Part shown: positions 5,392 to 40,174 of the stretch, piece after piece
Numbering within the stretch: the first letter of the stretch is position 1
Layout of the letters: each line of letters begins with the position of its first letter
NCBI GenBank assembly: GCA_048939765.1
Contig: JBHLPF010000024.1
Location: 13,776 to 57,345, forward strand
Reading direction: 5' to 3'
Length of the DNA stretch: 43,570 nt
Source: Promethearchaeota archaeon
GTDB taxonomy: Archaea > Asgardarchaeota > Thorarchaeia > Thorarchaeales > Thorarchaeaceae
Notes under the pieces: model-generated
Told to the model about the DNA's origin: nothing
The model's input: only the letters and a program-made list of their open reading frames with translations
Database searches by the model: none
Made by a program: the position numbers and the translations under genes

Positions 5392-8300
5392 TCATCTTGT
5401 ACTTTGTATAAACGACCTTTGGTTCTCCTGCTTCTTTTCCCACTTTTTGCGTTCTGAACGAAGTTGGAAAAGCTGTACATCCTTGTAGATTAGACCTTCC
5501 TTCCTCGGTGGTATACTTCTTTCGACACGTTCCTTTTCAGGAGTGTAAATGAGCGAAGCTCCGAACTCAGCAATATTCGCAAAGAAACAATAGGCGTAGA
5601 TGGATCTTCGAGCATCAAAGTGGGCTGCCTTGAAGTCTGCTGTAACCGGGGTGAATGCTGGATTGAACACTAGATCCACTGGAGGCTCAAAGTTCTTTAG
5701 CTCCACCCTCAGGTCCATGTCCAGAAAGTCTCGACATATAACAATTACAATCCTTCCAAACTCTGTGTCGCAAACGAACGTTTTCCTCGGGAATGTTCCG
5801 GTTCCTATTTCCTCAGTGAACCTTTCGCCCTTATAGTGAATAGTAGCCGGAATATGCTTCTCCTGGTTCCAAAGGATTCCCCCTGGTCCAATGACCACAC
5901 TTAGGTTCTGCTTTGCTTCATCATCATGGTACGAGCCCGGAATAATGTACATGCTATAGTCCTTGGCTAGGCGGGTTATGTCTTCTAGTAATTCGTTGTA
6001 GTTGAGGTCGATGGTCATTTCCGGGAAGAGTAGGATGTTAACACCTTCTCTGTGAGCGAATTCTATCATGCTTCTCACACTAGATTTTACTGCTTCGACT
6101 TTGTCATGCCGAAGACCTAGAAGGCCATTAGCCTTTATCTCATAGAATTCGTTTAGGATGTCCTTAGTGTTGGAAACTCCTATCTGGGCGATGCCAACCC
6201 TGTACTCCATTCTCTGAACACTTGTGTCATCTTTGAGTAGGTTCCTGTAGATGAGCTCGTATTTTCTTTGACTCGTTTCCTCTCTGACCATCGTTGCTCT
6301 TTCGGTGAATTGACGAACTTCACCTATTCTTGGAGAGAGGCTGGTTTCCACAGGACAGGAAGGGGCGACAATGCCCAATGTGCTTCTGGAGATTGATGGT
6401 TCTGTTATGGTGTCTGAGGCTGAAACTAGAATACGCTCTTCCTTTTCCACCATGTCTAGGTGTCCCAGAATCTCTTTCTCTTTTTCTTTGTGACCCGATT
6501 TGCTGAAGAGCTCAGCTGCTGATTTCAGATACTTAGTCGCGATTCTGAGGAGTTTCTTCCTTCTGTCAATATCCAACTCCTCGTCTGTTCTGATTAAGTG
6601 CCATGCCACATCGAAATAGGTAGATGTTGCTAGAGCCCAGTCAGCTCCGCTATTGTAACCGCCTTTCCGATAAGAAGAGGCTGCTTTTCTAAGCATCTTC
6701 TTGATCTTAGGGTAGAGTGGTGCTTTGACATCTGTTTCAGTTGACTCGTCAAATTTGCATCCGTGTTCTAAAGCCTTACAAAAGGCTGAGTTGCCTGTAG
6801 CTAGTAGTTTCAGCTTGGTATCAGTGAAGAGCTTGCTGGCTTTGGTAAACAAGCTTGCTGCTTCTGCGAACTTGTCTGCATCATCGTAGTTCTCTGCAAG
6901 CTCCATGCTTTCCCAGGCTCTACAGAGGTTGTATACAGCTTCTAATTCCATACGTTCCGCCTTGATTCTGAATTGAGTGAGAACTTCCTTGAACTCAGAA
7001 GCCGCTGAGGCAAATCTCTCTGCAGCTGCCAGGTGTTCACCTTGCTTTCCTAGAATTCTTGCTCTTTCAATATCTGCCCTACCAGAGCAGTAGTTCATTC
7101 TCACTTTGGCGACTTTCTTGAGTTTCTCGATTCTTTCTCTTTCCCATCTCTTTTCCAAAGAAGTGGAGGTTTCTTCTAGTGATATTATCGCGTTATCAAA
7201 TCTCTTTCTGGTTGTTTCATAACTTTCTAAAGCCTGCTCATGATCTTCCTGTTTACTGAGTTGTTCAGCTTCTTCTTGGAGAGCCCAAGCAGAGAAGTAT
7301 GATGCTTCGTAATCATAGCTTGGCAGTTCTTTCAGAATATCGCAAGCTTTCTCATAGTTTTCTTTGGCTTTTTGGTAATCTGACATCCTGTGATAGGCCT
7401 TAGCCTTCTCAATCATGTTCCATGCACAAGCGTAGTTTATTTTCTCTTCCACTCTCTCTCTCAAGGGTTTGAAGTCAATGGTTTTCAATGACTCTGAATG
7501 AGCCTCCTGAGCTCTTTCGTAGTGTTCAGCCGAGGCAAAATGGTTGCCGAGTCGATCTTCGATATGTGCAGTATATTCGTGACCAGCAGCTGCATAGAAA
7601 TGGTATCCTCTCTCATTACTCTCCTTGATTACTCCTAGGAATGTTTCTTTTGCCTTTCTAAGCGGGTCGACCTTTGTCGTCAATTTGCCAAGCTCTTCAT
7701 AGAGAAGTCCTAGCCGCACTTGGGCCGCTACGATGCCGGTACGGCTTTCCACAGCATGTTGATTGTACTTTCTGGAGGCATCTATAGCAGCTGATAGATG
7801 TTTGATTCTTTCTTGCTCGTTTTCTGCAAGGTCTGCGAGAGTCTTGTAGGCTCCGTAGGTAGAAGAATACCCTGCAGCTCGAGCCCATCCTCCATCGTAT
7901 TCTTCCCCGATTTTTTCACCTTGTCGGGCATATTGAAGCATTTTCTGGACGTGTTGATTCCGCTCATCTTTTGTATTAGCAAGAGTAGCTAGCAGTGAAT
8001 GTGCCCATGTTAACGCCTGAAATTGCCAGGCAGAAGCTGGTCTGAAGGTAAACTTCTTCAATCCCTCCAATACATATTCAATTGCCTTCTCAGCAAAAGA
8101 TCTCCTTTGTGCAGTAGTGAAGAAACTCGCCCGAGTGGCCATGTTCGCATAGCAGAAAGCAGGCACAACTTTTCCAGCATGATACCAAATGCTGTTTGAT
8201 TTCGCATATATTCTTACAATCTCTTCCATAAGCCGGATGTCTTCGAATGTTTGTTTCTGGAGGTACTCGTGTCTTCCTGTAGATAGGGCGTTCCAGTTCA

Positions 8301-9222
8301 ACCACCATAACGAAGATAATATCAGAATTTTATTATTCGCTCTCTTTGCGAAGACTACAGCCTTTTTCCCTAACTGAAATCCTTTCTCGGTGTATTCTCT
8401 CTGCTCTCTTTCATCTTTAATGAAATGAAATCCAAAAAAGTAGTATACGGCGCCGGCCGCAAGGTGAACCATACTAATGAGTAGAGGATTATCACAATCC
8501 TCGATAGCCTTTATACTTTCATCACACCTCAATAGAAATTTCCTGTTGTATTCCTTCCAATTCTCATCCCATGTATAAGGTGCAAAGATCATATGAGTCC
8601 AACATAGCCATAATTCAGCATATAATGATTCAACAAGAGATTGTACATTACCAACCTCCTTTGAAAGACCCCAAGAATCTCCAGCTATGGTTATGCCATC
8701 CTGAGATAACTGCTCAATCTCTCGCTTGTCACTACATTGAGTAACTAGGTGGAATGAAACCAGTGCAGCACGACTCAGAGTCCGCGCTTGACCCTCTTGA
8801 TCATTCTCCTTGAAAAAGAACTCACTTGATTTAATGAAGTGGTCATGAGATTTGCTAAGCGCCTTCCTGCTTTCCACATTGGACTCAGCTACAAACCCTT
8901 TGAAGAAGAAGACTTCTCCAAGGCATTCCAATTCCTCCTGCTTATTACCTGTCTGGCTATAGAGAGTGGCAGCTTTTCTATAGGCATGAATAGCATTTCT
9001 GGTATGGTGTATGTTTTCCGCTGCAGTTTCAACTGTATCTGCCAACTGTGCATGAACATATCCAAGCTTCATGTATGCCCCCGCGGCGCCCTTCACATCT
9101 TTCTTGTCTAAATAGGACTCTGCCGCCTGCTTGTAAACCTCCACCATTTGTATCCATTTGTAACCTGTCTTCTCAACGCTCTCCCCTGCAGATAGATCCT
9201 CGCTTTCTTCCTTCTTCATCAT
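5392..9222 (-). CDS. 1276-aa helical-repeat (TPR/SNAP-like) protein with a C-terminal carbon-nitrogen hydrolase (nitrilase) domain
   Basis: About 950 aa of Ala/Tyr/Glu/Lys-rich TPR-like helices. The C-terminal domain has RVGIAQ, ILLFPEM, IIPGSY, QEKHIP, ICRDF and FANIA, giving an intact Glu-Lys-Cys triad. Confidence 0.8.
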   Translation of the reverse strand: MMKKEESEDLSAGESVEKTGYKWIQMVEVYKQAAESYLDKKDVKGAAGAYMKLGYVHAQLADTVETAAENIHHTRNAIHAYRKAATLYSQTGNKQEELECLGEVFFFKGFVAESNVESRKALSKSHDHFIKSSEFFFKENDQEGQARTLSRAALVSFHLVTQCSDKREIEQLSQDGITIAGDSWGLSKEVGNVQSLVESLYAELWLCWTHMIFAPYTWDENWKEYNRKFLLRCDESIKAIEDCDNPLLISMVHLAAGAVYYFFGFHFIKDEREQREYTEKGFQLGKKAVVFAKRANNKILILSSLWWLNWNALSTGRHEYLQKQTFEDIRLMEEIVRIYAKSNSIWYHAGKVVPAFCYANMATRASFFTTAQRRSFAEKAIEYVLEGLKKFTFRPASAWQFQALTWAHSLLATLANTKDERNQHVQKMLQYARQGEKIGEEYDGGWARAAGYSSTYGAYKTLADLAENEQERIKHLSAAIDASRKYNQHAVESRTGIVAAQVRLGLLYEELGKLTTKVDPLRKAKETFLGVIKESNERGYHFYAAAGHEYTAHIEDRLGNHFASAEHYERAQEAHSESLKTIDFKPLRERVEEKINYACAWNMIEKAKAYHRMSDYQKAKENYEKACDILKELPSYDYEASYFSAWALQEEAEQLSKQEDHEQALESYETTRKRFDNAIISLEETSTSLEKRWERERIEKLKKVAKVRMNYCSGRADIERARILGKQGEHLAAAERFASAASEFKEVLTQFRIKAERMELEAVYNLCRAWESMELAENYDDADKFAEAASLFTKASKLFTDTKLKLLATGNSAFCKALEHGCKFDESTETDVKAPLYPKIKKMLRKAASSYRKGGYNSGADWALATSTYFDVAWHLIRTDEELDIDRRKKLLRIATKYLKSAAELFSKSGHKEKEKEILGHLDMVEKEERILVSASDTITEPSISRSTLGIVAPSCPVETSLSPRIGEVRQFTERATMVREETSQRKYELIYRNLLKDDTSVQRMEYRVGIAQIGVSNTKDILNEFYEIKANGLLGLRHDKVEAVKSSVRSMIEFAHREGVNILLFPEMTIDLNYNELLEDITRLAKDYSMYIIPGSYHDDEAKQNLSVVIGPGGILWNQEKHIPATIHYKGERFTEEIGTGTFPRKTFVCDTEFGRIVIVICRDFLDMDLRVELKNFEPPVDLVFNPAFTPVTADFKAAHFDARRSIYAYCFFANIAEFGASLIYTPEKERVERSIPPRKEGLIYKDVQLFQLRSERKKWEKKQENQRSFIQSTR

Positions 9223-9627: not shown

Positions 9628-9801
9628 TTAATTCCCCGTCACAGGACTGATCAGAAGCTTATTTCGCTGAAGTGAAACTCCGTAAGATTGTCCCTCTACA
9701 TCTTCAACCGATACTGATTCCCCTTGTAAGAACACACGGACCCTTTTTCGCAATTTCCGTCCTGGCAAATCGCGGATGTTTATTACGCAGGTCTCAGCCA
9801 T
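9628..9801 (-). CDS. Small hypothetical protein, 57 aa (below the track cutoff)
   Basis: Manual translation: MAETCVINIRDLPGRKLRKRVRVFLQGESVSVEDVEGQSYGVSLQRNKLLISPVTGN*. Same strand as its neighbours. Confidence 0.45.
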   Translation of the reverse strand: MAETCVINIRDLPGRKLRKRVRVFLQGESVSVEDVEGQSYGVSLQRNKLLISPVTGN

Positions 9802-10346: not shown

Positions 10347-11825
10347 TCATGGATTATATGCAAATGGATGGCGCGCTGATTCCTTTCGCTGAATAATCTC
10401 GTCAACGGTTTGCCGACCCTCAATTGCTCTTCGAATTGCAAAGCGAACAGCTCGGAAGTTGTTGATGTGCACTCTTTTTGGATTGACAGCATTTGGATGG
10501 ACAAAGGTGTTAACTGCGATGACAAGGTCCGGAAGGAGTTCCTCAGGGATTACTCCATCTGTAACTGTGCGTCTAACAGCATCGGCTACCGCTCTCTGAG
10601 CGACTTCCATGACCATCTTCTTCTGCTTCTCACTTGTCACGGTCACAGTGGGTGCAAACACAGTAAGGGGTTCTAGGTCCTTGATGATGCTTGATGAATG
10701 AACGCCTTCGACAATCTTTCCAGCATTCTTCAATGCAGTATTAAGCGGTCCATCTCTGACCCCCATAACTAGGTCAACATGCGCCACCTCTTGACCTTCG
10801 CCTGCCAATGCTTCGCCATGTAGCAATGTCAAATCTTCAACATTATCAGGTACCAAACCTGCTGCCTTTGGATAGCTTTCAGCAAAGAGTTCACGGTCAC
10901 CCATCTTGAAGGTCACTGGCCCGCGTGGAATCAGCTGGAGGTCCTCAAGGCAGGTCCTGAGTTCATCTATGTCTTCATAACTCAGCGAGTCGCTCTCCTG
11001 TAGAGGGCGACGAGCCTGCCCCACAGGAATGCCCATCATGTTCAGTGCCGCTTTGATAGCCAAGCCTCCACCTCGATTCACAAAAATCCGTACAGTCTTC
11101 TGTATACTTCTCTGGATTATCAGAGCTGCTTTGAGATCACCAGTTGCCAGGGCAGCCTGCATCTTTAGATATCGGTCTGGAAAGATATTCGCACTAGCTA
11201 GGATTGCGCCATCACATCCAGAAGCAAGTGCTGGTAGAGCCACCTCATCATGTCCAACCATGACCTGGAACTCCTCTGGCTTCCGAACAAGAATAGTAGT
11301 CAAGTGTACGAGATTCCCGCTTGAGTCTTTGAGACCGATGATGTTGTCAATCTCCCTCAATCCATCAATTACCCACCAATCCAACATAACTCCAGTTGCT
11401 TGAGGAATATTATATGCGATAATTGGAATCTCTGAAGAATTCGCAATCTTCTCGAAGTGCTCGTATATCTCCTTAGTGGAAGGCTTCAGGAAATAGGGTG
11501 TAACAACCAATGCTGCAGAAGCTCCAAACTCAGCGGCTCTTCGTGTCAGCTTGATCACGTCATTTGTGTAGGCGGCTCCAGTCCCGGCGATAACTGGCAC
11601 TTGACCACCAGCGGCTTCACAGGCAATTCGAATGGCTTCTGTCTTCTCTTCCATTCTCATACTAGTGAATTCGCCAGTAGTACCACAAGGAACGATACCA
11701 GTGGCACCTTTTCTAATCGTATAGTCAATCAAGGCACGATACTGTGCTTCATTGACGCCCTTCTCATCGAATGGAGTGACTAGAGCCGGATAGACACCTT
11801 TGAATCTGTAGCTGGGACTTGTCAT
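10347..11825 (-). CDS. DapA/NAL-family class I aldolase fused to a C-terminal formaldehyde-activating enzyme (Fae) domain, paralogue A
   Basis: Aldolase motifs GVYPALVTPF, GTTGE, YNIP, GLKDSSG. C-terminal GEALAGEGQEVAHVDLVMG...GVIP...FVHP...AIRRAIEG...ARHPF matches Fae. Likely start is the ATG at 11825. Confidence 0.88.
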   Translation of the reverse strand: MTSPSYRFKGVYPALVTPFDEKGVNEAQYRALIDYTIRKGATGIVPCGTTGEFTSMRMEEKTEAIRIACEAAGGQVPVIAGTGAAYTNDVIKLTRRAAEFGASAALVVTPYFLKPSTKEIYEHFEKIANSSEIPIIAYNIPQATGVMLDWWVIDGLREIDNIIGLKDSSGNLVHLTTILVRKPEEFQVMVGHDEVALPALASGCDGAILASANIFPDRYLKMQAALATGDLKAALIIQRSIQKTVRIFVNRGGGLAIKAALNMMGIPVGQARRPLQESDSLSYEDIDELRTCLEDLQLIPRGPVTFKMGDRELFAESYPKAAGLVPDNVEDLTLLHGEALAGEGQEVAHVDLVMGVRDGPLNTALKNAGKIVEGVHSSSIIKDLEPLTVFAPTVTVTSEKQKKMVMEVAQRAVADAVRRTVTDGVIPEELLPDLVIAVNTFVHPNAVNPKRVHINNFRAVRFAIRRAIEGRQTVDEIIQRKESARHPFAYNP

Positions 11826-11830
11826 AATCA

Positions 11831-13234
11831 TCAACTCCATAATTGACCTAAGGCTGCTTTCACGGCTTCCTCGGTCGCAGCTCTTATCTCCCTTCGTTCT
11901 CGCGTATTCATGTCGATATCCAGTGCCATTAGCATTACATTGTTAGCTAGTGCCTCTCTTGGGATGAGGTTCTTCTCAAGATAATCAGCAACTGCACGCG
12001 CGGCTCCAGCTTGAACTGGACCATAAAAGAGAGAGGCCTGTCTCATCGATTCGATCTTGCCGATTGGAAACATCAGACTGGATGGCTTGACCGGGAGGTT
12101 TGGTTCCAGAATTACTGTAAGGGCTTCTCGGCCAATTTGAGGCGTTGTCAATAACTTCACAAATGCCTTCCCAACAGACCCCCTCTTAGAGCCCGATAGA
12201 ATACTGGCAGTGGCTTTATCATTTGATCCAGAACCGAATGTAATCCCTTCACCTTCAATTGGGATATCCATTTCACCAAGGATATCTCTGATTGCCATCA
12301 TCTTCACTGATGGATGTTCAAGAGATTCAATGATTCCCAGCTTCTCAAGTTCCAGACGAATCTCCTCTTTGAGTTCTAATGTCAATGTCCCACCGGAGTC
12401 AAGAGGCATCCTACTTCGTCCTGCCTTAATCCCCATCATCTTGAGCGCAGCTTTTACCGGTGGTCCACCTCCGTTCCTCGTAACTATCCTTGCAAGCGTC
12501 TGCACATCCTGTTGCAGTTCAGCAGCATTCGCATAATCACCTGATTTCACAGACTCCATGATTTCCAGCCAGATGTGTGGGATTATGTTTGCAGAAGCCA
12601 TAATCGCAGCACTTGCACCAGCTGCAATGGCAGAAAGGAAGCATTCATCATGTCCAATCAGTACTGGCATCTTCCCCTTCAATTTCTGGATCAGCTCAAC
12701 CGTATGTCCGATATTTCCGCCACTATCCTTGATTCCAACTATATTATCAAGCTCGGCCAAATCCTCAACGACATTTGAGTTGAGAATACCCAGTGTACAT
12801 TGGGGAATGTTGTACAGTATTATGGGCAAATCTGCTTTTCTGGCAACTTCGGCATAGTGATCATAATATCCCTTGTCAGCAGGCCGTAGGTAATAGGGAG
12901 ATATAATCAGTGCGGCATCACAGCCAATATCCGCCGCATATTGGGTGAGCGCTAATGTGGCTCTGGTGCTATTCTGGCCTGTGCCAGCGATAACGGGCAC
13001 TCTTCCATCAACATACTCTATAGCAAGCTTGAGAAGCTTCTTCCGCTCCTCTGTCCTCAGATATGAGAACTCACCAGTTGTTCCAGCTGGCACGACTCCG
13101 GTGACTCCTTTTCCTATTGTGAAATCAATTACCTGTTTGAATCCTTCTTCGAGGATATCTCCGTCCTTTGTAAACGGCGTGACAAGCGCAGGCATTACTC
13201 CTTTTGGAACGAATCTCTTGCCCAACAGTTTCAC
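11831..13234 (-). CDS. DapA/NAL-family class I aldolase fused to a degenerate Fae-like domain, paralogue B
   Basis: GVMPALVTPF, GTTGE, YNIP, GIKDSGG. C-terminal GSVGKAF...ILEPNLPVKPSSLMFP..KIESMRQASLFYGPVQAGAARAVAD matches the central part of Fae. Start is GTG 13234 or TTG 13225. Confidence 0.85.
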   Translation of the reverse strand: MKLLGKRFVPKGVMPALVTPFTKDGDILEEGFKQVIDFTIGKGVTGVVPAGTTGEFSYLRTEERKKLLKLAIEYVDGRVPVIAGTGQNSTRATLALTQYAADIGCDAALIISPYYLRPADKGYYDHYAEVARKADLPIILYNIPQCTLGILNSNVVEDLAELDNIVGIKDSGGNIGHTVELIQKLKGKMPVLIGHDECFLSAIAAGASAAIMASANIIPHIWLEIMESVKSGDYANAAELQQDVQTLARIVTRNGGGPPVKAALKMMGIKAGRSRMPLDSGGTLTLELKEEIRLELEKLGIIESLEHPSVKMMAIRDILGEMDIPIEGEGITFGSGSNDKATASILSGSKRGSVGKAFVKLLTTPQIGREALTVILEPNLPVKPSSLMFPIGKIESMRQASLFYGPVQAGAARAVADYLEKNLIPREALANNVMLMALDIDMNTRERREIRAATEEAVKAALGQLWS

Positions 13235-13306: not shown

Positions 13307-13768
13307 TCATGAAGAGGACCTTGCTTCCCAAGAAGAAGATGGTGCTCTGATTATGACTGGTGTCAAAGATAACGCCAATATGGCGACTAATGGTATGGGA
13401 GTGATTAAGATAGGGGGGCCGCTGGCAGTGAGGTAGCCTATGAGAATGAAATATGCGAGTTGCATTAGCAATAGAATGAGAATCACAATAGCGTATCCCA
13501 GCTTGGTCAGATCCTCTCTAGTTATTGAGAGGAAAGTAATACCAGACACTATGAGCCCCATTCCCCAGAAGGGGAGGTAGTCTAGGGTGAGTCCTAGGGG
13601 AAACTCGAAGACAAACGACGCGCCGGAGTATGATACGAATGACCACAGCGGAGCTACAATCCTGAAGATTGTTCCACCAAGCAGATTCTGCTCAATAATG
13701 AAATATGGTGCTAGCAGGGTTGTAGCAAGTAAAAGTGATACAATTCTTCGGGAGAGTCCCAAACTCAT
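13307..13768 (-). CDS. Hypothetical multi-pass membrane protein
   Basis: About 4 hydrophobic segments in 153 aa. Confidence 0.7.
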   Translation of the reverse strand: MSLGLSRRIVSLLLATTLLAPYFIIEQNLLGGTIFRIVAPLWSFVSYSGASFVFEFPLGLTLDYLPFWGMGLIVSGITFLSITREDLTKLGYAIVILILLLMQLAYFILIGYLTASGPPILITPIPLVAILALSLTPVIIRAPSSSWEARSSS

Positions 13769-13872: not shown

Positions 13873-14196
13873 ATGACAGAGTACATTTTGGCGATCACTA
13901 CTTGTCCTAATAGCGACGCTACAGCTCTGGCAAAACGACTCGTGGAGGCGAGAGTGTGTGCTTGTGTGAACATCGTCCCTTCAATAAGGAGCATCTACAG
14001 GTGGAAGGGCAAAGTCGTGGATGATGAGGAAAGCATCCTGTTTATCAAGACCGAACGTACTTTTCAGGAAAGCCTCTGGAATGAGCTGAGAGCCCATCAC
14101 TCCTATGATGTACCGGAGTTCATTAGCATCCCAATACAAGGAGGCTCTCAGGACTATTTGAAATGGATAACAGAAAACATCACGGGATATCTCTAG
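13873..14196 (+). CDS. cutA: Divalent-cation tolerance protein CutA
   Basis: ITTCP, ACVNIVP.IRSIYRWKGKV..DEE, IKT, HSYDVPE, YLKWI. Confidence 0.95.
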   Translation: MTEYILAITTCPNSDATALAKRLVEARVCACVNIVPSIRSIYRWKGKVVDDEESILFIKTERTFQESLWNELRAHHSYDVPEFISIPIQGGSQDYLKWITENITGYL

Positions 14197-16643
14197 GCCA
14201 GATTCACACTTCTAGCCGCATAATGCAATGATTCATTGAAGTATCTTCCAATGACTCTAGCAATAGCAGGACCTACTACATAGTTAATGTCGCCTGGCAT
14301 AAGCTGCTTCAGATTTGTCTTTCCTGTTATCTTGCCGTTTCGACGCAGAGTCCTAATCTCCCGGTCTACTATCGACCTTGCTTCTGTGAGCGTCATTGGT
14401 TTGGCTGTCGAACCTATGAGACCTTGTTTTATGTCTGTGATAGCCCGCATCACAAATATAGCCAAGTTCTCTGTATCGTTGCTCGGAATCATATTAGTTG
14501 CCTTGTGTGTGGGACACTTATTATCAGGGGGTGTTTCACCACAAACTGAACATAGCTTTCGACCTCTGCTTGTGCGGATATAGAATGACAAGAGATTAGT
14601 GCATTTTGAATCATCGTTTGTATTCCACTCAAGACCCTTGACACCTACTCTCCCAATTGCTCTAAACACCGTCTGACTCTTTGTGTATATCCAAGTCAAG
14701 ACATCAAGTGAGGCCTTCTTGCTCTCGGCTACTTTCTGTTCCTCGAGCTTGGCTTCGAGTGCCAGTTCCTCCTTGGCAAGCTTTTTCCTGCGCTCAGTTC
14801 TAAGGAACCGATGCATGATATCATACGCAATCGCATAGTTGTCAAAGTCTAGCTGATCTGTCACGAGTTCAGTATCGATTACCCCTTCAAAGACAGGACT
14901 TGGCGTGCTATCAATCTCTGCCTTTGCAGCAGTCATGTCCTTGTTGGAAAGCCGAGCATGCATCCATGAAGTGATGTCTGGTGCCTGTAGGTCAGGATAG
15001 ACCGTCTTCAGTTCATAGATTCTCTTAGAGGCCAAATCAATGAGGATTTCTTCCCGAAGCGCCTGCAGGTCAGTTTCAGGACTCTCATAGATGCTTTTGA
15101 GAAGAGCCTTGACGCGCAGGAGGTCCTGTTTGGAACGGATATATGTTTCAACCACACGTGAGAGATTTGTAAGGACACCTGAGGTGAGGTGCCATACCAG
15201 GTCATATTTGAGAGCGGAGATGGTTTCACCATGGCGACGATGTCGAACTATATCTGATGATGAGGACACGCCAATAGAACTTAGTGCGCCTTGCTTCACT
15301 TTTTCACGCGCCTCGAGTAGTCTCTTCACATCTTCTGGCGACGGAACTCTTGTCTTCTGCTTAAGAGCCTCCAGAACTGTGACCTCAAAACCAATAAGTG
15401 AATCCCGGTCCTTTGCTAAAGTTTCAATTGTGAACTTATCAAGCTCTGATGCCCTGAGACCCTGAGCCTTCAACGCGCCTTTTACCGGTCGCTCCAAGAT
15501 GTTCTCGAGCTTGTCTATTGCCTTGAGCGATCGTTCCAAGTAATCCATTTCTACCTCGCTGATGCCAGGACCCTCCGCTTCAGTTTCCTCAGACTTTGCT
15601 TCCTCCGCAATTCTGAATCCCTTCACCAGATCTGATGGATCAGACAGGCCCTTGCGCCTTAATGCTGCAGCGATGTCCGTGGACGGTATTCCTAAGAGAG
15701 AGGAGAGCAGATCGAAAGCTTGTGCAGGATTGGCTTCAATTGCTGATGCGACATCCTCAGTTACCGTATCCATAAGCTGCGTTTCGTATTCACCAAGTGT
15801 GGTAGGGCTTATGAATTGCGTCTCAACTGCTGTCAGAAAGTTTAGACGGATTTCATGGGCGCGCCTAATGGCGGCAAGTTCATCAGCTGGTCTGCAGTAT
15901 CTTTTTGCCAAATCCTTTGCGATACCGCCCATAGAAGCTGGATATGTCATAGACTCACCAATATGCGCGCTGGCATAGCGTGACTCACCCCATATTCGCT
16001 TCAGGCCTTCCTTCAGAACTGTAATCTCAATAACTTCTGAATCATGTTCTCGGAGAACCTCCTCTCGTAGAGACATAGCGGTTTCTTTGAGACCTGATGC
16101 TTTGGCATATAGCTCTTCTCTCATATTTGAATCGTATTTCGTCAACTGATTGAGGAAGTCAACATCATGATTCTGTGAGAATTCAGTCGGGATCATTCCT
16201 AGATATTCCTTGATGAGATCTCCAGTTTTCGTGATGGTCTCATCATCGGCAGGGTTTCTACTACCAAGCTCATCGCAAAAGCGTAAAACGAATTGGCAGA
16301 GTATCTTTCCCACTGCAACTTCTTCGCGTTGTTTCGTTCCAAGGAGTCTGCGAACTTCATCTTCTAGCCGGACTCTTGTTTCTGCACCAATCTTCTCCTG
16401 TTCCTCAATGCTAAGATTCTGAGCATCTTCAATAGTGTGCAAGCGCACGCCTTGATAGCTCTGCAAATAGAACGATGCAAAGGCTGCCAAGACTCTATCC
16501 AGAGGCTGGGGCTCAGGAATCATTTCATTGAATATCTGTCGAGCTCTTGTGCTTCGTAAATGAGTTGCTAGAGCCTCACGAAGGATAAGTTCTTTCCCTG
16601 CCTCACTCATCTGACGTGTCTTAATGATCCAAGAACTTGACAT
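14193..16643 (-). CDS. Large helical hypothetical protein (816 aa) with a C-terminal CxxC-x8-CxxH zinc knuckle
   Basis: Long ORF. The ATG at 16643 follows GGAGGTG embedded in the end of the upstream gene. Contains CSVCGETPPDNKCPTH. Confidence 0.8.
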   Translation of the reverse strand: MSSSWIIKTRQMSEAGKELILREALATHLRSTRARQIFNEMIPEPQPLDRVLAAFASFYLQSYQGVRLHTIEDAQNLSIEEQEKIGAETRVRLEDEVRRLLGTKQREEVAVGKILCQFVLRFCDELGSRNPADDETITKTGDLIKEYLGMIPTEFSQNHDVDFLNQLTKYDSNMREELYAKASGLKETAMSLREEVLREHDSEVIEITVLKEGLKRIWGESRYASAHIGESMTYPASMGGIAKDLAKRYCRPADELAAIRRAHEIRLNFLTAVETQFISPTTLGEYETQLMDTVTEDVASAIEANPAQAFDLLSSLLGIPSTDIAAALRRKGLSDPSDLVKGFRIAEEAKSEETEAEGPGISEVEMDYLERSLKAIDKLENILERPVKGALKAQGLRASELDKFTIETLAKDRDSLIGFEVTVLEALKQKTRVPSPEDVKRLLEAREKVKQGALSSIGVSSSSDIVRHRRHGETISALKYDLVWHLTSGVLTNLSRVVETYIRSKQDLLRVKALLKSIYESPETDLQALREEILIDLASKRIYELKTVYPDLQAPDITSWMHARLSNKDMTAAKAEIDSTPSPVFEGVIDTELVTDQLDFDNYAIAYDIMHRFLRTERRKKLAKEELALEAKLEEQKVAESKKASLDVLTWIYTKSQTVFRAIGRVGVKGLEWNTNDDSKCTNLLSFYIRTSRGRKLCSVCGETPPDNKCPTHKATNMIPSNDTENLAIFVMRAITDIKQGLIGSTAKPMTLTEARSIVDREIRTLRRNGKITGKTNLKQLMPGDINYVVGPAIARVIGRYFNESLHYAARSVNLA

Positions 16644-16644
16644 A

Positions 16645-19314
16645 TTAGGCACCTCCTATGTGGCGAAAGTGAGTGTCCCCAACGGTTACAGTGAGTTCAT
16701 TGCCTCTTTGTTCATATGTCACTAGATAGATAATTTCTGGATTCTTGGGGTCTCTTAGATACGCTCTGGTGGCACGCGGGAACAATTTGCCTAGACTCCG
16801 AATCTCTGTATTGCGCAAGTACTCCAAGAAGTCTTCTCCAATCCCAACGGTCAATTCGGCTGACACTGCTGATGCCTCCGTGAGCATTTGTTTCAGACTC
16901 TCTGCGAAGACTTGCTCCATTTTCTCTTGAGCAATATCCATACTATCCAGTTTCTGAGTTAGTAGGTCTCGGAGATCAAGATAATGCTGCATTTCAGGGG
17001 GTGGCGGAGGCTTTTCAGGAACTGGAATCTCTTCCATTTCAGGAAATTGATTGTTCACCTCTACGATTCTCACATCGAGTGATTGTGGACGCTTCGGCTC
17101 TGTAGGTAATGGAAGAGGCTCAATGACAGCCGGGGAAGGCTCGCCGAGCGCTAGAGAAGGCACTTCCTCGGCCAATGCCTTTGCAGCTTCCAAGGCTCTG
17201 CGATGTTTCTCCATCTCAATCTCATATTGGGCCTTCTCCTCATTGTACTGAGATTCAGCTAGAGCAATAGCCTCTGCACGTTTCTTGTTATTCTCGCGGA
17301 TGGGTTGATTTTCTGACTCAATGCGTTCGCAAGTCCCTTCCCAATCTTCTACAATCAGCTGGTATGCTTTCTCCTGCTGGTTGGCTTCGAAGGTGACCTT
17401 GTCTACAATGGCCTGCGCTGATGACCCCAAACCAACTTTGTTATGCACATATCTAAGCAATGCCAAGAATCTCTCAGGGGTTTTCGTCTGCGGCGTGATG
17501 GTTTCCAGATAGCCTCTAATCCATACCCGAGCCTCGTTTCTCCATTCATCGGGCTTTTGGGTCATGCTTTCAATGAACTCGCCAATTTCCTTAGTCAAGT
17601 CTGCGCCTTCATCAAGGGCTTTGTCAATGACCTTTCTTATCAGGGTCTTTGAAAGCAGAGTATCTGCAACATTGGGAATGATATTCAGCACAAGGTCCTC
17701 GAAGGTTTCCAATATGGCCAAGATGGCCCGCTCATCCTGAGAGATCTCCGCAGCTTCTGACTCGTCCGTGTATTTGGTGGCAATCTCCGATTTCGCGATT
17801 TCAGCTACATCGCTGAATCCGACAAGATCCCATATTTCAATGCGATCAAATGCCTCGAGCATGTCCTTGTTTATTATTGCCAGAATCTCATCCAAGTTTC
17901 TGTAAACTGAGCCTTCATAAGACACTCTGTCGAAAATGGCATTCATTTGAGAATGCAGTTCGACATAGAACTTGTCGAATAGCATCTTATCAATAGCTTC
18001 AGTTGTGGACGATTTCATATCTTCTTGGAATCTGTTTAGGGCAGTCATGAAAGCTTGACGGGCGGCGGTAACGACCAGAAACTGATTCATTGCATCTGGG
18101 AAGTATCGCATTGCACGTTTCGCATAGAGGTTATAGTATGATACAGTACTACTAAGCCTCCATGCTCGTACCTCTGGAATATCATAGAAGCTGCGCTGTG
18201 CAGATTTCACCAGCTCTTCTGCAAGTGCCTGTGCAATTTCCTTTCTGAATCCAACGAATAAGTCATTATGCATGTCGATTTGATTCAATATCTCCGTTTT
18301 ATGGTCAGGCAGAGAGAGGGTCTTTCCTGATGTGACATGCTGCTCTGTTACCTTCTCAAAAGATTCAACAGATTCGGTGGCTAATGAAACAAACTCATCC
18401 AACTCCCTCTTGAATGAATGCAAATCACGGAGTGACACCTCACTCTTGCCAAGAAATTCCGTGAACTTCGTAGTCATGGTATTCGCGATATCGACTTCCT
18501 CTTTACTATAGGCGTACGTGTTCAGCTCACTAAGGATTGCGCGTCCAGCTTCTGGCACCTTAACAGCAATTGCATCGAGACCACGGGGGGTGAGTAATCT
18601 ATGTTTGAAATGCCTTAGAACTGCCTCTTCACTCTCCCTGGGAAGGAAGAATTCGAGAAGAGTCCGATCCATAACTTTTATCCCAGGCGGAAGAAGTGTG
18701 AAATCTTCTCGGATGTTCATGGTCACTTCAATCTCCTTATCCACATGCTCAGATTTGAGCTGAAGAGAGTCCCAAGATGCTTGAAAGCGTCTGTCCAACA
18801 TCTCGACGAATATGACGCGATTTAGACGGTCATTGAACCTTCGGAGTACAGGTAGGCCATACGTCTCGTAACTCATTCCATTGCTGATGATTGCACTCTC
18901 TATATCGGACATCTTCTTGGAGAGAGTCTGCATATGTTCGTCAATCTTGAATGGATCAACCGCTCCCTTTTCCCAGCTTAGAATGACAACATGGGATCCA
19001 ATACCTCCGGAAGTACCTCCGGCCACCACAAGTTGTTCAGGAAGAACTCCAGGACCTGGTTTTCGTTCCAAGTCCCATTCGAGTGATAGGAGTTCGAGGC
19101 CCTCAGCGTCTAGGAGAGCATCACGTATCGTGAAAACGAGAGGGGCGATATTCATCGCTACCGCATCCGAGTTCTCCTCCATCATGCTCCCTGAACCCAC
19201 AGCACTTCCCAAAGGATAGCCAAGATTCGTGGTAGTGCCAAGAACTGAAGCAGATGCCATTCTAATGGCCTCCACTGTACTTGGAGTGTCGACTTTCTTT
19301 TCCGCCCGACTCAT
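16645..19314 (-). CDS. Large hypothetical protein (889 aa): longin-like N-terminus, helical rod, coiled coil with a Pro-rich insert
   Basis: Long ORF with GGCGG upstream. The N-terminal beta-beta-alpha-beta-beta-beta-alpha pattern was judged by eye. EPLPLPTEPKRP and PVPEKPPPPPE segments. Confidence refers to the CDS; the domain call is weaker. Confidence 0.8.
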   Translation of the reverse strand: MSRAEKKVDTPSTVEAIRMASASVLGTTTNLGYPLGSAVGSGSMMEENSDAVAMNIAPLVFTIRDALLDAEGLELLSLEWDLERKPGPGVLPEQLVVAGGTSGGIGSHVVILSWEKGAVDPFKIDEHMQTLSKKMSDIESAIISNGMSYETYGLPVLRRFNDRLNRVIFVEMLDRRFQASWDSLQLKSEHVDKEIEVTMNIREDFTLLPPGIKVMDRTLLEFFLPRESEEAVLRHFKHRLLTPRGLDAIAVKVPEAGRAILSELNTYAYSKEEVDIANTMTTKFTEFLGKSEVSLRDLHSFKRELDEFVSLATESVESFEKVTEQHVTSGKTLSLPDHKTEILNQIDMHNDLFVGFRKEIAQALAEELVKSAQRSFYDIPEVRAWRLSSTVSYYNLYAKRAMRYFPDAMNQFLVVTAARQAFMTALNRFQEDMKSSTTEAIDKMLFDKFYVELHSQMNAIFDRVSYEGSVYRNLDEILAIINKDMLEAFDRIEIWDLVGFSDVAEIAKSEIATKYTDESEAAEISQDERAILAILETFEDLVLNIIPNVADTLLSKTLIRKVIDKALDEGADLTKEIGEFIESMTQKPDEWRNEARVWIRGYLETITPQTKTPERFLALLRYVHNKVGLGSSAQAIVDKVTFEANQQEKAYQLIVEDWEGTCERIESENQPIRENNKKRAEAIALAESQYNEEKAQYEIEMEKHRRALEAAKALAEEVPSLALGEPSPAVIEPLPLPTEPKRPQSLDVRIVEVNNQFPEMEEIPVPEKPPPPPEMQHYLDLRDLLTQKLDSMDIAQEKMEQVFAESLKQMLTEASAVSAELTVGIGEDFLEYLRNTEIRSLGKLFPRATRAYLRDPKNPEIIYLVTYEQRGNELTVTVGDTHFRHIGGA

Positions 19315-22244: not shown

Positions 22245-24137
22245 CTATGGATACTTGGCAGTCCATTCCAGTGATAGCCTTCGAATTGTTTCCTTAGTGG
22301 GTAGTCCTGTTTCCAAATCCCACCCTCTAAGCCTGTAGTAGTCATTAAGCATCGATTCAAGATCCACCACTTGACCTTTGCCGGGGCCTTCAGGCATCGG
22401 CTCATCAGTGAAGCGAGCCGGGAGTTTATCGTCCTTACGCGAAATACCTTCGCGTGCATTGAATAGTCGCTTCAGGTTTACCTGTCTTTCAGCTATCTCT
22501 GTGAGTGTGTCTACGCTACCAAACTCCTTGACACCGGTTGCCAAAGGCAACATATCTGCGAAATCCTGCATCCAGAATATTGGCGGCCACGAAACCGAGT
22601 ACCAACAGACGATCAACGTATCGCGGATGCAATAGCTATTTTCAGACTCGAATACTGCAGTTGCCTTATACTTCTCTGTGTACGGATCCACGATCTCTGG
22701 GAGCTTGTCGGCGCCCCAGCGCTCAGCAGCTATATCTTCATACCCCAGTTGATCAACGACAACGAGGCTTCTAAGATGGTCGGCTCCTCGAGCGCCAGTC
22801 GCATGCCCTAGACCAATACTCCGATGAGTTCTTCCATCTTGTCCGGAGATCTCCATTCCCTTCACATGAAGCGCATATTGCTCTGCGCCTTTGCCTATCT
22901 TCTGTGCGGCTTTAGCACTCCCTTCTGCGAGAATATCACCAAATCCCTCGCGCCTGCCCATCATCTCTAAAAGACGAATGGTCATTTCGCGATCGCCCCA
23001 TTGCAGACGAAGGCCACCAGTGTCCTTCTCATCTATTATGCCGTTCTCAAATGCCTCCATGGCAAAACCAATTGTCGCTCCAGCCGAGATGATGTCCATC
23101 CCATATCTATTGCATACCTGATTTGCCTTGAGCGTGGTTGGATAATCATCTATGCCAAGAGAGCTACCAAATGCCATGAGGCCTTCGTACTCAGGACCTT
23201 CTTCAAGTGTCCCGGCGAAGAGGCCCTCACGTACATAGTTGACCTTCTTGCAGCCAAGGCTACAACCGAAGCATGCTCGGTCAGAGATTGTATATCGAGG
23301 ACGAATATAGTCAGCTGCCAGCTTCTCCCATCCTGAGAATACACCAGTTCTATGGTTGTAGGTGGGCAGCTCTCCAATCTCTTGTTTCACTGCAGTTAGG
23401 ATCCAGGTTCCCCAGCGACCCATCTCCTGCGCTTGGGGATTATCTCTGACTCTTTGATGAGCCTTCTTTGCCAGCTGAGTAAAACCTTCATGGTCAAATA
23501 CTTCCACAGAACCATGACCACGAATTGCAATAGCCTTCACGTTCTTTGAGCCAAGGACTGCGCCCATCCCGGTCCGTCCCGCGGCTCTGGCATTATCGAC
23601 TATCACAGCGGAGAAGCGGACTTTGTTCTCCCCGGCCGGACCAATCGCAGCAACTTGTATTTCAGGGTCTTTATGCCTGTTCTTTATTGCCGCTGTGACA
23701 TCATTTGTTGTCATTCCCCAGAGGTCACTTGCATCAACAATCTGGAGATCATCGTCTTCAATGAGAATATAGACAGGCTTCTCGGCTGCGCCTTCAACAA
23801 CTAACATATCATATCCGGCGTACTTCAGCTCTGGCCCAAGAAAACCACCCACATGAGACTCACCCCATATGCCAGTCAGAGCAGCCTTTGATACGAATAC
23901 TGTTCTACCGCTCATTGGCCATAGTGTACCAGTTATGGGACCAGTCGCAATCATCAACTTGTTCTCAAGACCAAGTGGGTCTATGCGTCCAGGCACTTCT
24001 TCATAGAGGAGTTTGGCTGCAAAGCCATCACCACCTATGTAGTCATGAATCCATGCCATGGGAAGGGGTTCAGATTTGAAATCACCATCATTTAGAAGCA
24101 CACGGAGAATCCTGCCCTTGTATCCGCCATACTTCAA
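22245..24137 (-). CDS. aor: Tungsten-containing aldehyde:ferredoxin oxidoreductase family protein
   Basis: GYKGRILRV.L, IGPAGEN, AAGRTGMGAVLGSKNVKAI, CFGCSLGC, GPEYE, CNRYGMDIISAG, LAEG, RGADH, YYRLRGWD. TTG start at 24137 after GGAGAG. Confidence 0.95.
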   Translation of the reverse strand: MKYGGYKGRILRVLLNDGDFKSEPLPMAWIHDYIGGDGFAAKLLYEEVPGRIDPLGLENKLMIATGPITGTLWPMSGRTVFVSKAALTGIWGESHVGGFLGPELKYAGYDMLVVEGAAEKPVYILIEDDDLQIVDASDLWGMTTNDVTAAIKNRHKDPEIQVAAIGPAGENKVRFSAVIVDNARAAGRTGMGAVLGSKNVKAIAIRGHGSVEVFDHEGFTQLAKKAHQRVRDNPQAQEMGRWGTWILTAVKQEIGELPTYNHRTGVFSGWEKLAADYIRPRYTISDRACFGCSLGCKKVNYVREGLFAGTLEEGPEYEGLMAFGSSLGIDDYPTTLKANQVCNRYGMDIISAGATIGFAMEAFENGIIDEKDTGGLRLQWGDREMTIRLLEMMGRREGFGDILAEGSAKAAQKIGKGAEQYALHVKGMEISGQDGRTHRSIGLGHATGARGADHLRSLVVVDQLGYEDIAAERWGADKLPEIVDPYTEKYKATAVFESENSYCIRDTLIVCWYSVSWPPIFWMQDFADMLPLATGVKEFGSVDTLTEIAERQVNLKRLFNAREGISRKDDKLPARFTDEPMPEGPGKGQVVDLESMLNDYYRLRGWDLETGLPTKETIRRLSLEWTAKYP

Positions 24138-24138
24138 A

Positions 24139-24645
24139 TCAGCTCTCTCCGCTAGAACTAAATACATCAGCAGTGCGTTGTATCTCTTTGAGGTAGCTCA
24201 GAATCTTGGAGTGACGATCAACTGTTCGTACTGTAGATGTAGGCCCATAGACAATAGCTCCAGTCGGGCAGACTTTGGCACACTCAGGATCTCCACCACA
24301 ATGGTCACACTTGATAATCCTCATTCGTTCGTTGTCTAGAAGAATAACGCCATTAACACATGCGCCAACACAGGACTTACATAGAATGCATTTCTCCTCG
24401 ACAAGGAATGTCATTTTCGATATTGGATCTCGTCGTATGGCATAGACTGGGCAAATGTCAACACAAGGTGCTGTTTCGCAAGGTCCGCAGACATTTGGGA
24501 TATCTACACCAAGATCATCATACTTGATGATTTTCAGGCGCGCCAAGCTTGGCTGAAATTTGCCCTCATGTTTTGCGGAGCAGGCCAATTCACATATTCG
24601 ACAACCAGTACATTTGGCGAAATCAACAGACAATTGTGATGTCAG
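24139..24645 (-). CDS. 4Fe-4S dicluster (DmsB/HycB-like) electron-transfer subunit
   Basis: CTGCRICELAC, CGPCETAPCVDICP, CILCKSCVGAC, KCDHC..PECAKVCP. Start is CTG 24645 or GTG 24654. Confidence 0.92.
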   Translation of the reverse strand: MTSQLSVDFAKCTGCRICELACSAKHEGKFQPSLARLKIIKYDDLGVDIPNVCGPCETAPCVDICPVYAIRRDPISKMTFLVEEKCILCKSCVGACVNGVILLDNERMRIIKCDHCGGDPECAKVCPTGAIVYGPTSTVRTVDRHSKILSYLKEIQRTADVFSSSGES

Positions 24646-24713
24646 ATGGACCACCTCAGGATTCAACACGACTGCATAGCTGTGGAAAAAGCTTCCTGAA
24701 CGACAGTTTGCAG

Positions 24714-25781: not shown

Positions 25782-25893
25782 CGTTGTTCCCTCAAGCAAT
25801 GGTCTATTCTACCTCCTCATAAAGTCTAGGTATTATCCAGATGTGTGAATCATTTATTAGCAGAAATCGGAATGAGCCAACTAGGTGCATCCA

Positions 25894-38450: not shown

Positions 38451-38983
38451 TATGAAATACTCCTCTGCAATCAAGGTGCGCATCAGTCTTGTGCCTATTG
38501 CATGAAAAGGAAATTCATCGAAACCCCATTCGGGGTTCTCCTAACTCACTATGACAACAGACCTTTCTCAGACTAGATGCGCAACACAGGAAGAGAGCAG
38601 TAATGGTATAAACTAATCGAGAGATACTAGTCTGGAAGTCAAGCCTCCACTGGTTGGAGATCCTCTGACCTCATACGCGATCTGGTTGTGCTTCCATGCA
38701 GAAAGTCCCCAATAACAAACCGCTTTCGCAGAGTTTCTTCATAGAGAAATACCCTGCCACCTCCCGCACGAGCCATCAAGAATGCACCAAATACCTTTCT
38801 GACCTCTGGGCCTTCAAGAACCGTTTCTAGGGAATCTAAAAGCTAGCTTGAGCTTCTCAAGCCCTAGAATTGATGGAAATGGCAACACGGATCTTCTCAA
38901 TGGTCCCAAGTTCACTTCATCCCACACAGGAAAAGTAACACACTCAAATAAGGGTGCGCGTCTATGTAAGTGTGGGAGTAATT

Positions 38984-40174
38984 ATGATATCTCATCTACT
39001 TCATCTAGAATGTCCACAATGCGGCAGAAGTCACTCTGCTGAAACCCAGACTACTTTCTGTGTTTGCGGCTCCCCCCTCTTTGCAGTCTATGACATGTTT
39101 AGTGTGATAGAGGATATTCAGAGGGAACAGTTTCCGACCAAAGTCAACTCAATGTGGAGATATTCACAATTGCTTCCAGTAAAGTCACCTTCCTTCATCT
39201 ACAGCTTGGGAGAGGGATGGACTCCACTAATCAACACAAGACGACTCGGGAAGCATCTTGGTCTGAGATTCCTCAGTGTCAAGGATGAGGCTCAGAATCC
39301 CACGGGTTCTTTCAAAGACCGTGGACTCTGTGTTGCCGTGTCGAAACATCTCGAACTGGGTTCTACATCATTCGCGTTGCCTTCTGCAGGAAACGCCGCA
39401 GTTTCAACTGCCGCATATAGTGCGGCTGGAGGCGCGGAGTGTCATATCTTCATGCCAGCAGATACACCTGAACCATTCTTTCTCGACTGCGTTGCCTATG
39501 GAGCTGAAACCGTTCGAGTCGAAGGAAACATCTCTGATTGCGGGAAGGCCATGAAGAATGCGGAGGGGGATTGGACAGACCTCTCAACGACAAAGGAACC
39601 ATATAGGGTAGAGGGCAAGAAGACCCTAGCTTTTGAAATCGCAGAACAGATGGGATGGAGAGTTCCCGATGCGATTATTTGCCCTACTGGCGGAGGTACC
39701 GCTCTGATCGGAATCTGGAAGGGCCTTGATGAGCTTGAGGCATTGGGTCTCATCGATAGCAAAAGACCTAGAATGTATGCTGCGCAGAGTGCAGGCTGCG
39801 CTCCTATTGTGAGGGCAATCGAACATGGGAACGAAGCTTTACAACCATGGCAGAATAGCGATACAAAGGCACTCGGATTGAGGGTTCCAAGTCCATTTGC
39901 TGGAAGGCTGATTCTGGCAGCTATTCGTCAATCAGGGGGAGGCGCTGTTGCTGCGGCAGAACAAGAGATAGAGCCCTGCCATAGGATGGCGGCAAGAATG
40001 GAGGGAATGGACTTCTGTCCAGAAGCAGCTGTCGGACTGGCAGGAATTCGGAATCTGGTGGAGATGGGGGAGATAGATTTTGATGAAGAAGTACTGCTTC
40101 TAAACACAGGCTCAGGAGCTAGGTACTATTATGGTAGCCAACGCGAGGTTGACACCGAATCCTCAGGAGATTAG
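38984..40174 (+). CDS. thrC: Threonine synthase (PLP fold type II)
   Basis: N-terminal CPQC..CVC, SMWRY, LGEGWTPL, KDEAQNPTGSFKDRG, SAGNAA, EGKKT, PTGGG. Confidence 0.9.
   Translation: MISHLLHLECPQCGRSHSAETQTTFCVCGSPLFAVYDMFSVIEDIQREQFPTKVNSMWRYSQLLPVKSPSFIYSLGEGWTPLINTRRLGKHLGLRFLSVKDEAQNPTGSFKDRGLCVAVSKHLELGSTSFALPSAGNAAVSTAAYSAAGGAECHIFMPADTPEPFFLDCVAYGAETVRVEGNISDCGKAMKNAEGDWTDLSTTKEPYRVEGKKTLAFEIAEQMGWRVPDAIICPTGGGTALIGIWKGLDELEALGLIDSKRPRMYAAQSAGCAPIVRAIEHGNEALQPWQNSDTKALGLRVPSPFAGRLILAAIRQSGGGAVAAAEQEIEPCHRMAARMEGMDFCPEAAVGLAGIRNLVEMGEIDFDEEVLLLNTGSGARYYYGSQREVDTESSGD

Follow-up and report, generated by a model that had tools for sequence, protein, structure and literature searches.

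Paired DHDPS–Fae fusion proteins of Thorarchaeota: complementary Fae domains and a candidate formaldehyde-linked aldolase

The DNA analysed here (the window) is a stretch of 43,570 nt from contig JBHLPF010000024.1 of the Promethearchaeota archaeon assembly GCA_048939765.1, a member of the Thorarchaeaceae. Two adjacent genes on its reverse strand, referred to below as A and B, each encode an aldolase barrel of the DHDPS family followed by a domain related to Fae, the enzyme that condenses formaldehyde with tetrahydromethanopterin (H4MPT). It is apparent from a comparison of their orthologues that the residues conserved in canonical Fae are divided cleanly between the two proteins, one set being kept in A and the other in B. 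The barrels, moreover, have lost the character of a lysine-pathway DapA. The reading that we favour, with modest confidence, is that A and B form a heteromeric enzyme in which an aldol reaction with formaldehyde is coupled to a composite Fae/H4MPT site.

Complementary decay of the Fae domains

An earlier reading of this DNA, made from the sequence alone (the original prediction), had placed an aldolase barrel and a C-terminal Fae-like domain in each gene. Both open reading frames (ORFs) lie where it put them, and profile searches bear out the domain content. The Pfam family DHDPS (PF00701) matches over the whole barrel with E values of 3.7e-74 (A) and 3.6e-77 (B), and Fae (PF08714) matches with E values of 7.3e-34 (A; 117.5 bits) and 2e-27 (B; 96.6 bits), the cut-off being 27. 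The description of two Fae-like domains needs some qualification, in that the Fae domain of B is truncated, its match spanning profile positions 9–134 of 159, and lacks the catalytic His. With the NCBIfam Fae profile TIGR03126, A scored 126.5 against a cut-off of 118.05 and B, at 87.4, fell below it. Scores with the Fae-Hps profile NF009833 were 98.3 (A) and 73.2 (B) bits against a cut-off of 274, and the Fae part alone was matched.

The residues conserved to 80% or more in canonical Fae (20 representatives) were compared with 108 orthologues of A and 120 orthologues of B. The A orthologues keep E9, E17, A19, His20 (0.99), Asp22 (0.99), F117, H119, N132 and the H-P-F C-terminal arm; in them P56-N57-L58 is deleted, and Q77, A78, G83 and P84 are lost. 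The B orthologues keep G46, L50, P56-N57-L58, P62, Q77-A78 and G83-P84-x-Q86, with every one of these present in 97% of sequences or more, and are without E9, E17, A19, His20, Asp22, F117, H119 and N132, their C-terminal arm being deleted as well. The proteins of the window follow the same division. Retained in A are GEAL, EVAH354VD356L, FVHP (446–449), NNF and the arm RHPF (490–493), with the PNL-KP loop deleted and Q77/A78 and the Gly-Pro of GPxQ lost. Retained in B are ILEPNLPVKP (375–383) and GPVQ (405–408); the catalytic His/Asp are lost (the segment reads DKATASIL), as is FxH, and the whole C-terminal arm is absent. Both residue sets are kept together in P0400, a single fusion of the Loki type.

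Comparison with the solved Fae of Methylorubrum extorquens (1Y5Y) gave a similar picture, the A domain aligning from end to end (E value of 6.5e-24) and the B domain with chain residues 14–141 only (4.4e-12). The paper describing 1Y5Y and 1Y60 reportedly places methylene-H4MPT in a cleft formed by two adjacent subunits, proposes His22 as the acid catalyst and describes movement of Gln88 and of the C-terminal arm on binding. His20 and Q86 in the numbering used here we take to be His22 and Gln88 of those structures. The full canonical set (His22, the PNL-KP loop, GPxQ, FxH and the HPF arm) is found in one chain in neither A nor B, and nearly all of it in A and B together. The survival of nearly every canonical Fae invariant in one protein or the other speaks for selection acting on a functional composite site. 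Judged by their sequences, A and B would be complementary subunits contributing half of one Fae site each, rather than equivalent copies.

A complex prediction for the Fae halves of A and B gave a score of 0.88, the best of three controls reaching 0.50; of 80 solved complexes, 58 attain the mark used for this score, as do 2 of 110 mismatched pairs. The predicted local distance difference test (pLDDT) score of the partners was at least 87, and at least 83% of the contacts agreed between runs. The confident interface in the model comprises residues 338–345, 354, 356–358 and 477–493 of A and residues 375–383, 405–409 and 412–420 of B. The retained face of A is thereby modelled against the retained face of B, a result that indicates likeness and not, of course, binding.

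These data bear on a simpler scheme, in which duplication left two separate homo-oligomers side by side, both of them aldolases, the Fae of B being a dead remnant and that of A weakened. All catalytic residues are present in both barrels, the substrate loops differ, solved DHDPS-family enzymes and Fae are homo-oligomers, and single fusions exist in Loki-type genomes, all of which would fit such a scheme. The losses are, however, reciprocal: A too has given up the PNL loop, Q77, A78 and the Gly-Pro of GPxQ. The nearly abutting gene pair has, moreover, been retained across distant lineages, and the model puts retained face to retained face. We therefore regard two separate enzymes as quite improbable.

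Aldolase barrels and the lysine pathway

The catalytic motifs that had been recognized at the outset (GTTGE, the Tyr of YNIP and the Schiff-base Lys in G[LI]KD) are all present in both proteins. In A they comprise GTTGE (53–57, with T54-T55), Tyr143 and the Schiff-base K171 in GLKDS (nt 11328–11330), and in B GTTGE (51–55, with T52-T53), Tyr141 in YNIPQ and the Schiff-base K169 in GIKDS (nt 12728–12730). The Lys, the Tyr and TTGEF are invariant in 52 of 52 B sequences and invariant or nearly so in 50 A sequences, the divergent outlier P0253 excepted. Trp155, which follows YNIPQxTG, is invariant in the A-type and single fusions and not in the B-types. An AlphaFold (AF2) model of A had a pLDDT of 89.7 and a predicted template modelling (pTM) score of 0.88, with lower confidence just at the N-terminus and the C-terminal arm. 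When this model was used in a Foldseek search, its barrel matched DHDPS chains with template modelling (TM) scores of 0.93–0.95, and no solved chain covering both domains was found. The DHDPS-family barrel of each subunit appears competent as a pyruvate-type aldolase of class I, the class that works through a Schiff-base lysine. The possibility that B donates the equivalent of Tyr107 to the aldolase site of A (Phe in A, Tyr in B) was considered and ruled out, as either Tyr or Phe occurs in both types across lineages.

Databases name both proteins as DapA (4-hydroxy-tetrahydrodipicolinate synthase), the name also given by the source to those orthologue clusters that carry one. A true DapA with an accessory domain would be in keeping with the scores for the NCBIfam dapA profile TIGR00674 (232.9 bits for A and 234.4 for B, above the cut-off of 206.15), with the closest solved structures to A and B, which are DHDPS, and with the catalytic residues, Thr44/Thr45, Tyr133 and Lys161 of Escherichia coli DapA being kept in both proteins. 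The other NCBIfam profiles compared, namely NanA, KdgD, archaeal KD(P)G aldolase and HpaI-not-DapA, placed A and B far below every cut-off; scores for A and B were 184 and 198 with TIGR02313 (cut-off 396.7) and 119 and 117 with NF040954 (cut-off 390).

Nevertheless, we find a lysine-pathway role barely credible. Arg138 of E. coli DapA binds the carboxylate of aspartate semialdehyde. As originally noticed, it has no counterpart here, its position being occupied by Ala148 in A and Cys146 in B; in 15 aligned fusion sequences from seven lineages the residue is A, C, V, L, M or Y, and never Arg. The motif YNVPSRT is present in E. coli DapA and in stand-alone Asgard DapA. In a sample of 91 Asgard genomes, f22 and other families, Loki-type genomes among them, have a stand-alone DapA of 300 aa (330–342 bits, YNVPSRT) beside a 500-aa fusion (235–257 bits) in the same genome. 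Neither dapB nor asd, which the original prediction had already missed in the window, was found anywhere in the source genome (3.37 Mb, 88.5% complete), and LysW was not found either. In the taxonomic family of the source genome (f1), asd was found in 8 of 41 genomes (completeness of at least 85%), yet the fusions occur in 78 of 85. A phylogenetic tree of the barrels placed E. coli and Asgard DapA in a clade of their own (support 100/98), with all fusion barrels outside it and grouped together at 83/82; that tree gives no firm internal order for the A, B and single forms and would fit one split as well as several. Taken together, these data support the view, already put forward in the original prediction, that A and B are not DapA of the lysine pathway.

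The source genome contains a third DHDPS-family gene (G000:C13:22886-23722; L005:1237-2382), which has GNTGEF and VGVKYS and is not fused to Fae. The YNxPxRT motif is lacking from it, so that it does not look like dapA.

Distribution and proposed reaction

More than 100 orthologue clusters were found for each protein, at 64–94% identity and mostly from metagenome-assembled genomes of Thorarchaeota. A and B hold the only Fae domains of the source genome. In family f1 as a whole, the 78 of 85 genomes with Fae matches nearly always have exactly two, the best E values being 1e-27 to 1e-36, whereas most other Asgard families have proteins of the Fae-Hps type (1e-65 to 1e-72; ORFs of 395–460 aa). 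Since the matches in f1 are all lower-scoring, no canonical Fae or Fae-Hps type is seen there. The closed Thorarchaeota genome CP070761.1 has the same tandem pair with the same 5 nt spacing. The pair is also present in a 297-kb contig (from a cluster labelled Anaerolineae by NCBI), in a contig labelled Korarchaeota and in Asgard families f5 and f28; in Loki-type genomes the fusion is single.

When species genomes were scanned with the A-type Fae tail, 205 matching stretches were confirmed. Among the 80 of these that are listed are Thor-, Hermod-, Prometh-, Atabey- and Baldrarchaea and many Bathyarchaeia, together with Thermoproteota, Methanomassiliicoccales, Thermoplasmata, Chloroflexota and Aerophobetes. 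Searched against a library of 1.84 billion representatives, this Fae domain matched only 406 clusters, about 10 of which are DHDPS–Fae fusions. A literature search found no paper on a DHDPS–Fae fusion family.

Within the Asgard archaea, the fusions track the H4MPT pathway as represented by Mch. Mch and Mtd are present in the source genome, and Mch is found in 41 of 41 genomes of the family. Mch is present in all Asgard families of the 91-genome sample that have fusions, and f8, f10, f11 and f26, the families from which it is missing, have neither Fae nor fusions. The beta-RFAP synthase (TIGR00144), which catalyses the first step of H4MPT biosynthesis, was dropped as a marker: it had no match in the source genome in spite of the Mch and Mtd there, and is thus a weak one. 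The gene may lie in the missing 11% of that genome or be too divergent.

In the enzyme proposed here, A would supply the acid-catalyst His, FVHP, NN(F/Y) and the C-terminal arm, and B the PNL-KP and GPxQ loops. Contact between the A and B faces would rebuild one complete cleft resembling that between neighbouring subunits of the solved Fae pentamer, although the assembly might consist of separate A:B Fae pairs carried on a DHDPS-type dimer or tetramer instead of a pentameric ring. An aldol reaction with formaldehyde as the aldehyde partner would be coupled to the condensation of formaldehyde with H4MPT, without release of free formaldehyde. The most likely, and simplest, reaction would be pyruvate + methylene-H4MPT <-> 4-hydroxy-2-oxobutanoate + H4MPT, in one direction or the other. 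The enzyme would thereby probably pass a one-carbon (C1) unit from a pterin to a small keto acid or the reverse. There is a precedent in the Fae-Hps proteins of methanogens, in which Fae is fused to a formaldehyde-releasing aldolase.

Several observations weigh against this proposal. The sequence by itself does not point to formaldehyde as the aldehyde, and no conserved gene neighbour that would name the substrate was found across the Thor, Loki, Kor and Anaerolineae-labelled loci. Both barrels look active, yet the loops after YNIPQxTG differ, with Trp155 in A and not in B; one Fae site may therefore serve two aldol activities, which a simple scheme does not explain. The complex model, which covers the A–B pairing alone, may reflect memory of the solved Fae homopentamer. 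Outside the Asgard archaea, finally, no Mch match was obtained in 8 of 10 carriers, whose genomes may be incomplete: Mch was found in one of five Chloroflexota, in none of the four genomes from Methanomassiliicoccales, Thermoplasmata and Aerophobetes, and in the one closed Bathyarchaeota genome. Five of those eight are also without a beta-RFAP synthase above the cut-off. H4MPT may therefore not be the universal carrier, and the link to the H4MPT pathway that had been predicted stands for the Asgard archaea and not beyond them. Mapped in this way, the fusions do not occur mainly in genomes lacking the pathway among the Asgard archaea; elsewhere they do so in part. The carriers without Mch are L086, L096, L100 and L102 (Chloroflexota), L099 and L101 (Methanomassiliicoccales), L090 (Thermoplasmata) and L091 (Aerophobetes).

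It is conceivable, then, that A and B are aldolases for another aldehyde, acting for example on a 2-keto-3-deoxy sugar acid or another keto acid, with a Fae-like module that binds a different ligand or serves as an assembly or regulatory domain. The Mch-less carriers would be accounted for, as would the incompleteness of each Fae domain alone and the lack of pathway context at the loci. Many DHDPS-family members cleave keto-deoxy sugar acids, in line with the sub-threshold NCBIfam matches given above. An unrelated ligand or a structural role is harder to reconcile with the joint retention in A and B of nearly all canonical Fae invariants, including the acid-catalyst His and the arm that clamps the coenzyme, with the near-canonical Fae of the Loki-type single fusion (194 bits), or with the confinement of the Asgard fusions to Mch-positive families. 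On balance we consider another aldehyde unlikely, although well short of negligible, and retain the formaldehyde-coupled heteromer as the preferred reading.

A further proposal concerns what such a heteromer might be used for. A and B could be the entry to a natural 4-hydroxy-2-oxobutanoate route, in which pyruvate and the methylene group of the H4MPT branch of the Wood–Ljungdahl pathway yield the keto acid of homoserine. If this were so, the C4 amino-acid family would be made without aspartate kinase, aspartate-semialdehyde dehydrogenase and homoserine dehydrogenase, and Thorarchaeota, other Asgard lineages and Bathyarchaeia would possess a natural counterpart of the engineered homoserine cycle. 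In favour of it, 3 of the 41 family genomes have homoserine dehydrogenase (hom) and 8 have asd, whereas threonine synthase matches all 41, 36 of them above the cut-off. The source genome has three threonine-synthase (ThrC) paralogues (Table 1), all passing NF006050; homoserine dehydrogenase, aspartate-semialdehyde dehydrogenase and homoserine kinase were not found in it, and few or none in the family.

The kinase, which was looked for as support for an anabolic route, failed to provide it. Homoserine kinase of either known type was above the cut-off in none of the 41 family genomes (GHMP-type thrB, 0/41), matches to the ApgM-type kinase profile TIGR02535 scored 171–320 bits against a cut-off of 446 and are most likely ordinary phosphoglycerate mutase, and no kinase adjoins any of the three ThrC genes. 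Nor is an aminotransferase or kinase linked to the A/B pair. With no homoserine kinase passing the cut-off, the anabolic route is possible but has a hole; we judge it unlikely and have not adopted it as the main interpretation.

Hundreds of these proteins are named DapA in databases. As a consequence of that naming, a lysine step that is probably lacking may be credited to Thorarchaeota, other Asgard archaea and Bathyarchaeia in metabolic reconstructions, and a link of C1 to central carbon metabolism may be overlooked. If the chemistry proposed is correct, A and B would form the first natural enzyme dedicated to joining pyruvate with a C1 unit bound to a pterin. The divided site would likewise represent a clean natural case of subfunctionalization, in which a site between identical subunits became an obligate two-gene site, and for which an unsplit relative, the Loki-type single fusion, survives as a comparison.

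Organization of the locus and relation to known systems

The coordinates of the two genes and their parts are given in Table 1. The longest ORF for A runs from 11840 to 10347 on the reverse strand (497 aa), and from that start A would overlap B by 10 nt. The ATG at 11825 is codon 6 of this ORF and has GGAG 9–12 nt upstream, and A orthologues are 491–492 aa long, matching a start there. It is thus most likely, from these features, that translation of A begins at 11825. The spacing of 5 bp reported originally for the two genes holds with this start and not with the longest ORF. Gene B ends in TGG AGT TGA, which is followed by the spacer and then by the ATG of A. The position of GGAG within the last codons of B suggests that A and B are carried on one transcript and that their translation is coupled.

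Table 1. Coordinates of genes A and B, of their parts and of the threonine-synthase genes
Feature	Position	Strand	Remarks
Gene B	11831..13234	-	467 aa, GTG start; orthologues 464-467 aa; ORF with Pfam DHDPS + Fae
B aldolase barrel	12398..13204	-	Pfam residues 11-279
B Fae-like half	11849..12226	-	Residues 337-462; degenerate, truncated
Spacer TGATT, 5 nt	11826..11830	-	Between TGA stop of B and ATG of A
Gene A	10347..11825	-	492 aa from ATG at 11825; ORF with Pfam DHDPS + Fae
A aldolase barrel	10977..11804	-	Residues 13-288 of 497-aa ORF
A Fae half	10362..10817	-	Residues 342-493; candidate catalytic half
Threonine synthase, window copy	38954..40174	+	484.7 bits; passes NF006050
Threonine synthase, second paralogue	G000:C41 (L108:6352-7845)		Passes NF006050
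Threonine synthase, third paralogue	G000:C78 (L109:5826-7160)		Passes NF006050

Several other genes were observed around the pair. An ORF of 153 aa without a Pfam match (13307–13768, reverse strand) lies between CutA1 (13873–14196, forward strand) and gene B. In CP070761.1 the distance from CutA1 to B is 113 bp and this ORF is absent, so that in the window it may be spurious or an insertion. An ORF of 57 aa (9628–9801, reverse strand; MAETCVINIRDLPGRKLRKRVR...) resembles a 72-aa gene located 3′ of A in CP070761.1 (L008:11739-11957); it appears to be a small protein conserved 3′ of the A/B pair and matches no known family. Two large adjoining ORFs of 819 and 889 aa (14193–19314, reverse strand) have no Pfam match, and CP070761.1 has counterparts of 814 and 867 aa in the same position, also without Pfam matches. 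A TPR protein of 1276 aa with a C-terminal C-N hydrolase domain is encoded at 5392–9222 (reverse strand); in CP070761.1, a TPR protein of 1037 aa is found on the other side of the A/B pair. Further away (22245–25799 and 28898–30157, reverse strand), genes for an aldehyde:ferredoxin oxidoreductase, a poly-ferredoxin and a class IV aminotransferase stand in a row, with glutamate dehydrogenase nearby. These look like an amino-acid fermentation set.

Of known systems, the archaeal Fae-Hps protein (NF009833) is the closest. There too a Fae domain is fused to a formaldehyde-handling aldolase, making passage of formaldehyde between a C–C bond and H4MPT possible. The partner of Fae is, however, a class I Schiff-base DHDPS barrel in A and B and an Hps of the OMP-decarboxylase fold in Fae-Hps. 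The Fae domain is C-terminal in A and B, in contrast to the N-terminal Fae and C-terminal Hps of that protein, and its site is split over two paralogous subunits. M. extorquens Fae (1Y5Y/1Y60) is matched by A over the whole chain, including the His, the FxH and the C-terminal arm, and by B in the PNL-KP loop and GPxQ. The solved enzyme, however, stands alone as a homopentamer with both faces on every subunit, whereas A and B are incomplete singly and are fused to aldolases. With DapA (TIGR00674) the two proteins share the fold, the pyruvate-side catalytic residues and a score above the cut-off; they differ in lacking an equivalent of Arg138 and any detected partners of the diaminopimelate pathway, in forming a separate clade, and in carrying an extra linker and the Fae domain.

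Two further enzymes resemble A and B in chemistry. PanB (PF02548) transfers a hydroxymethyl group from a methylene-pterin to C3 of a 2-oxo acid and is thus a functional analogue of the reaction proposed, although its fold is unrelated and its mechanism metal-dependent. The fusion was considered as a substitute for a missing ketopantoate hydroxymethyltransferase; this was ruled out because 38 of 41 family genomes have a PanB of their own. In the synthetic homoserine cycle (reviewed in PMC8879981), E. coli RhmA converts pyruvate and formaldehyde to 4-hydroxy-2-oxobutanoate, which the review terms a non-native metabolite; the step is described there only as a promiscuous activity within an engineered pathway. 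A and B are proposed to carry out this same aldol step, but RhmA is a class II metal aldolase that uses free formaldehyde, whereas A and B would make up a class I enzyme that is natural, dedicated and pterin-coupled.

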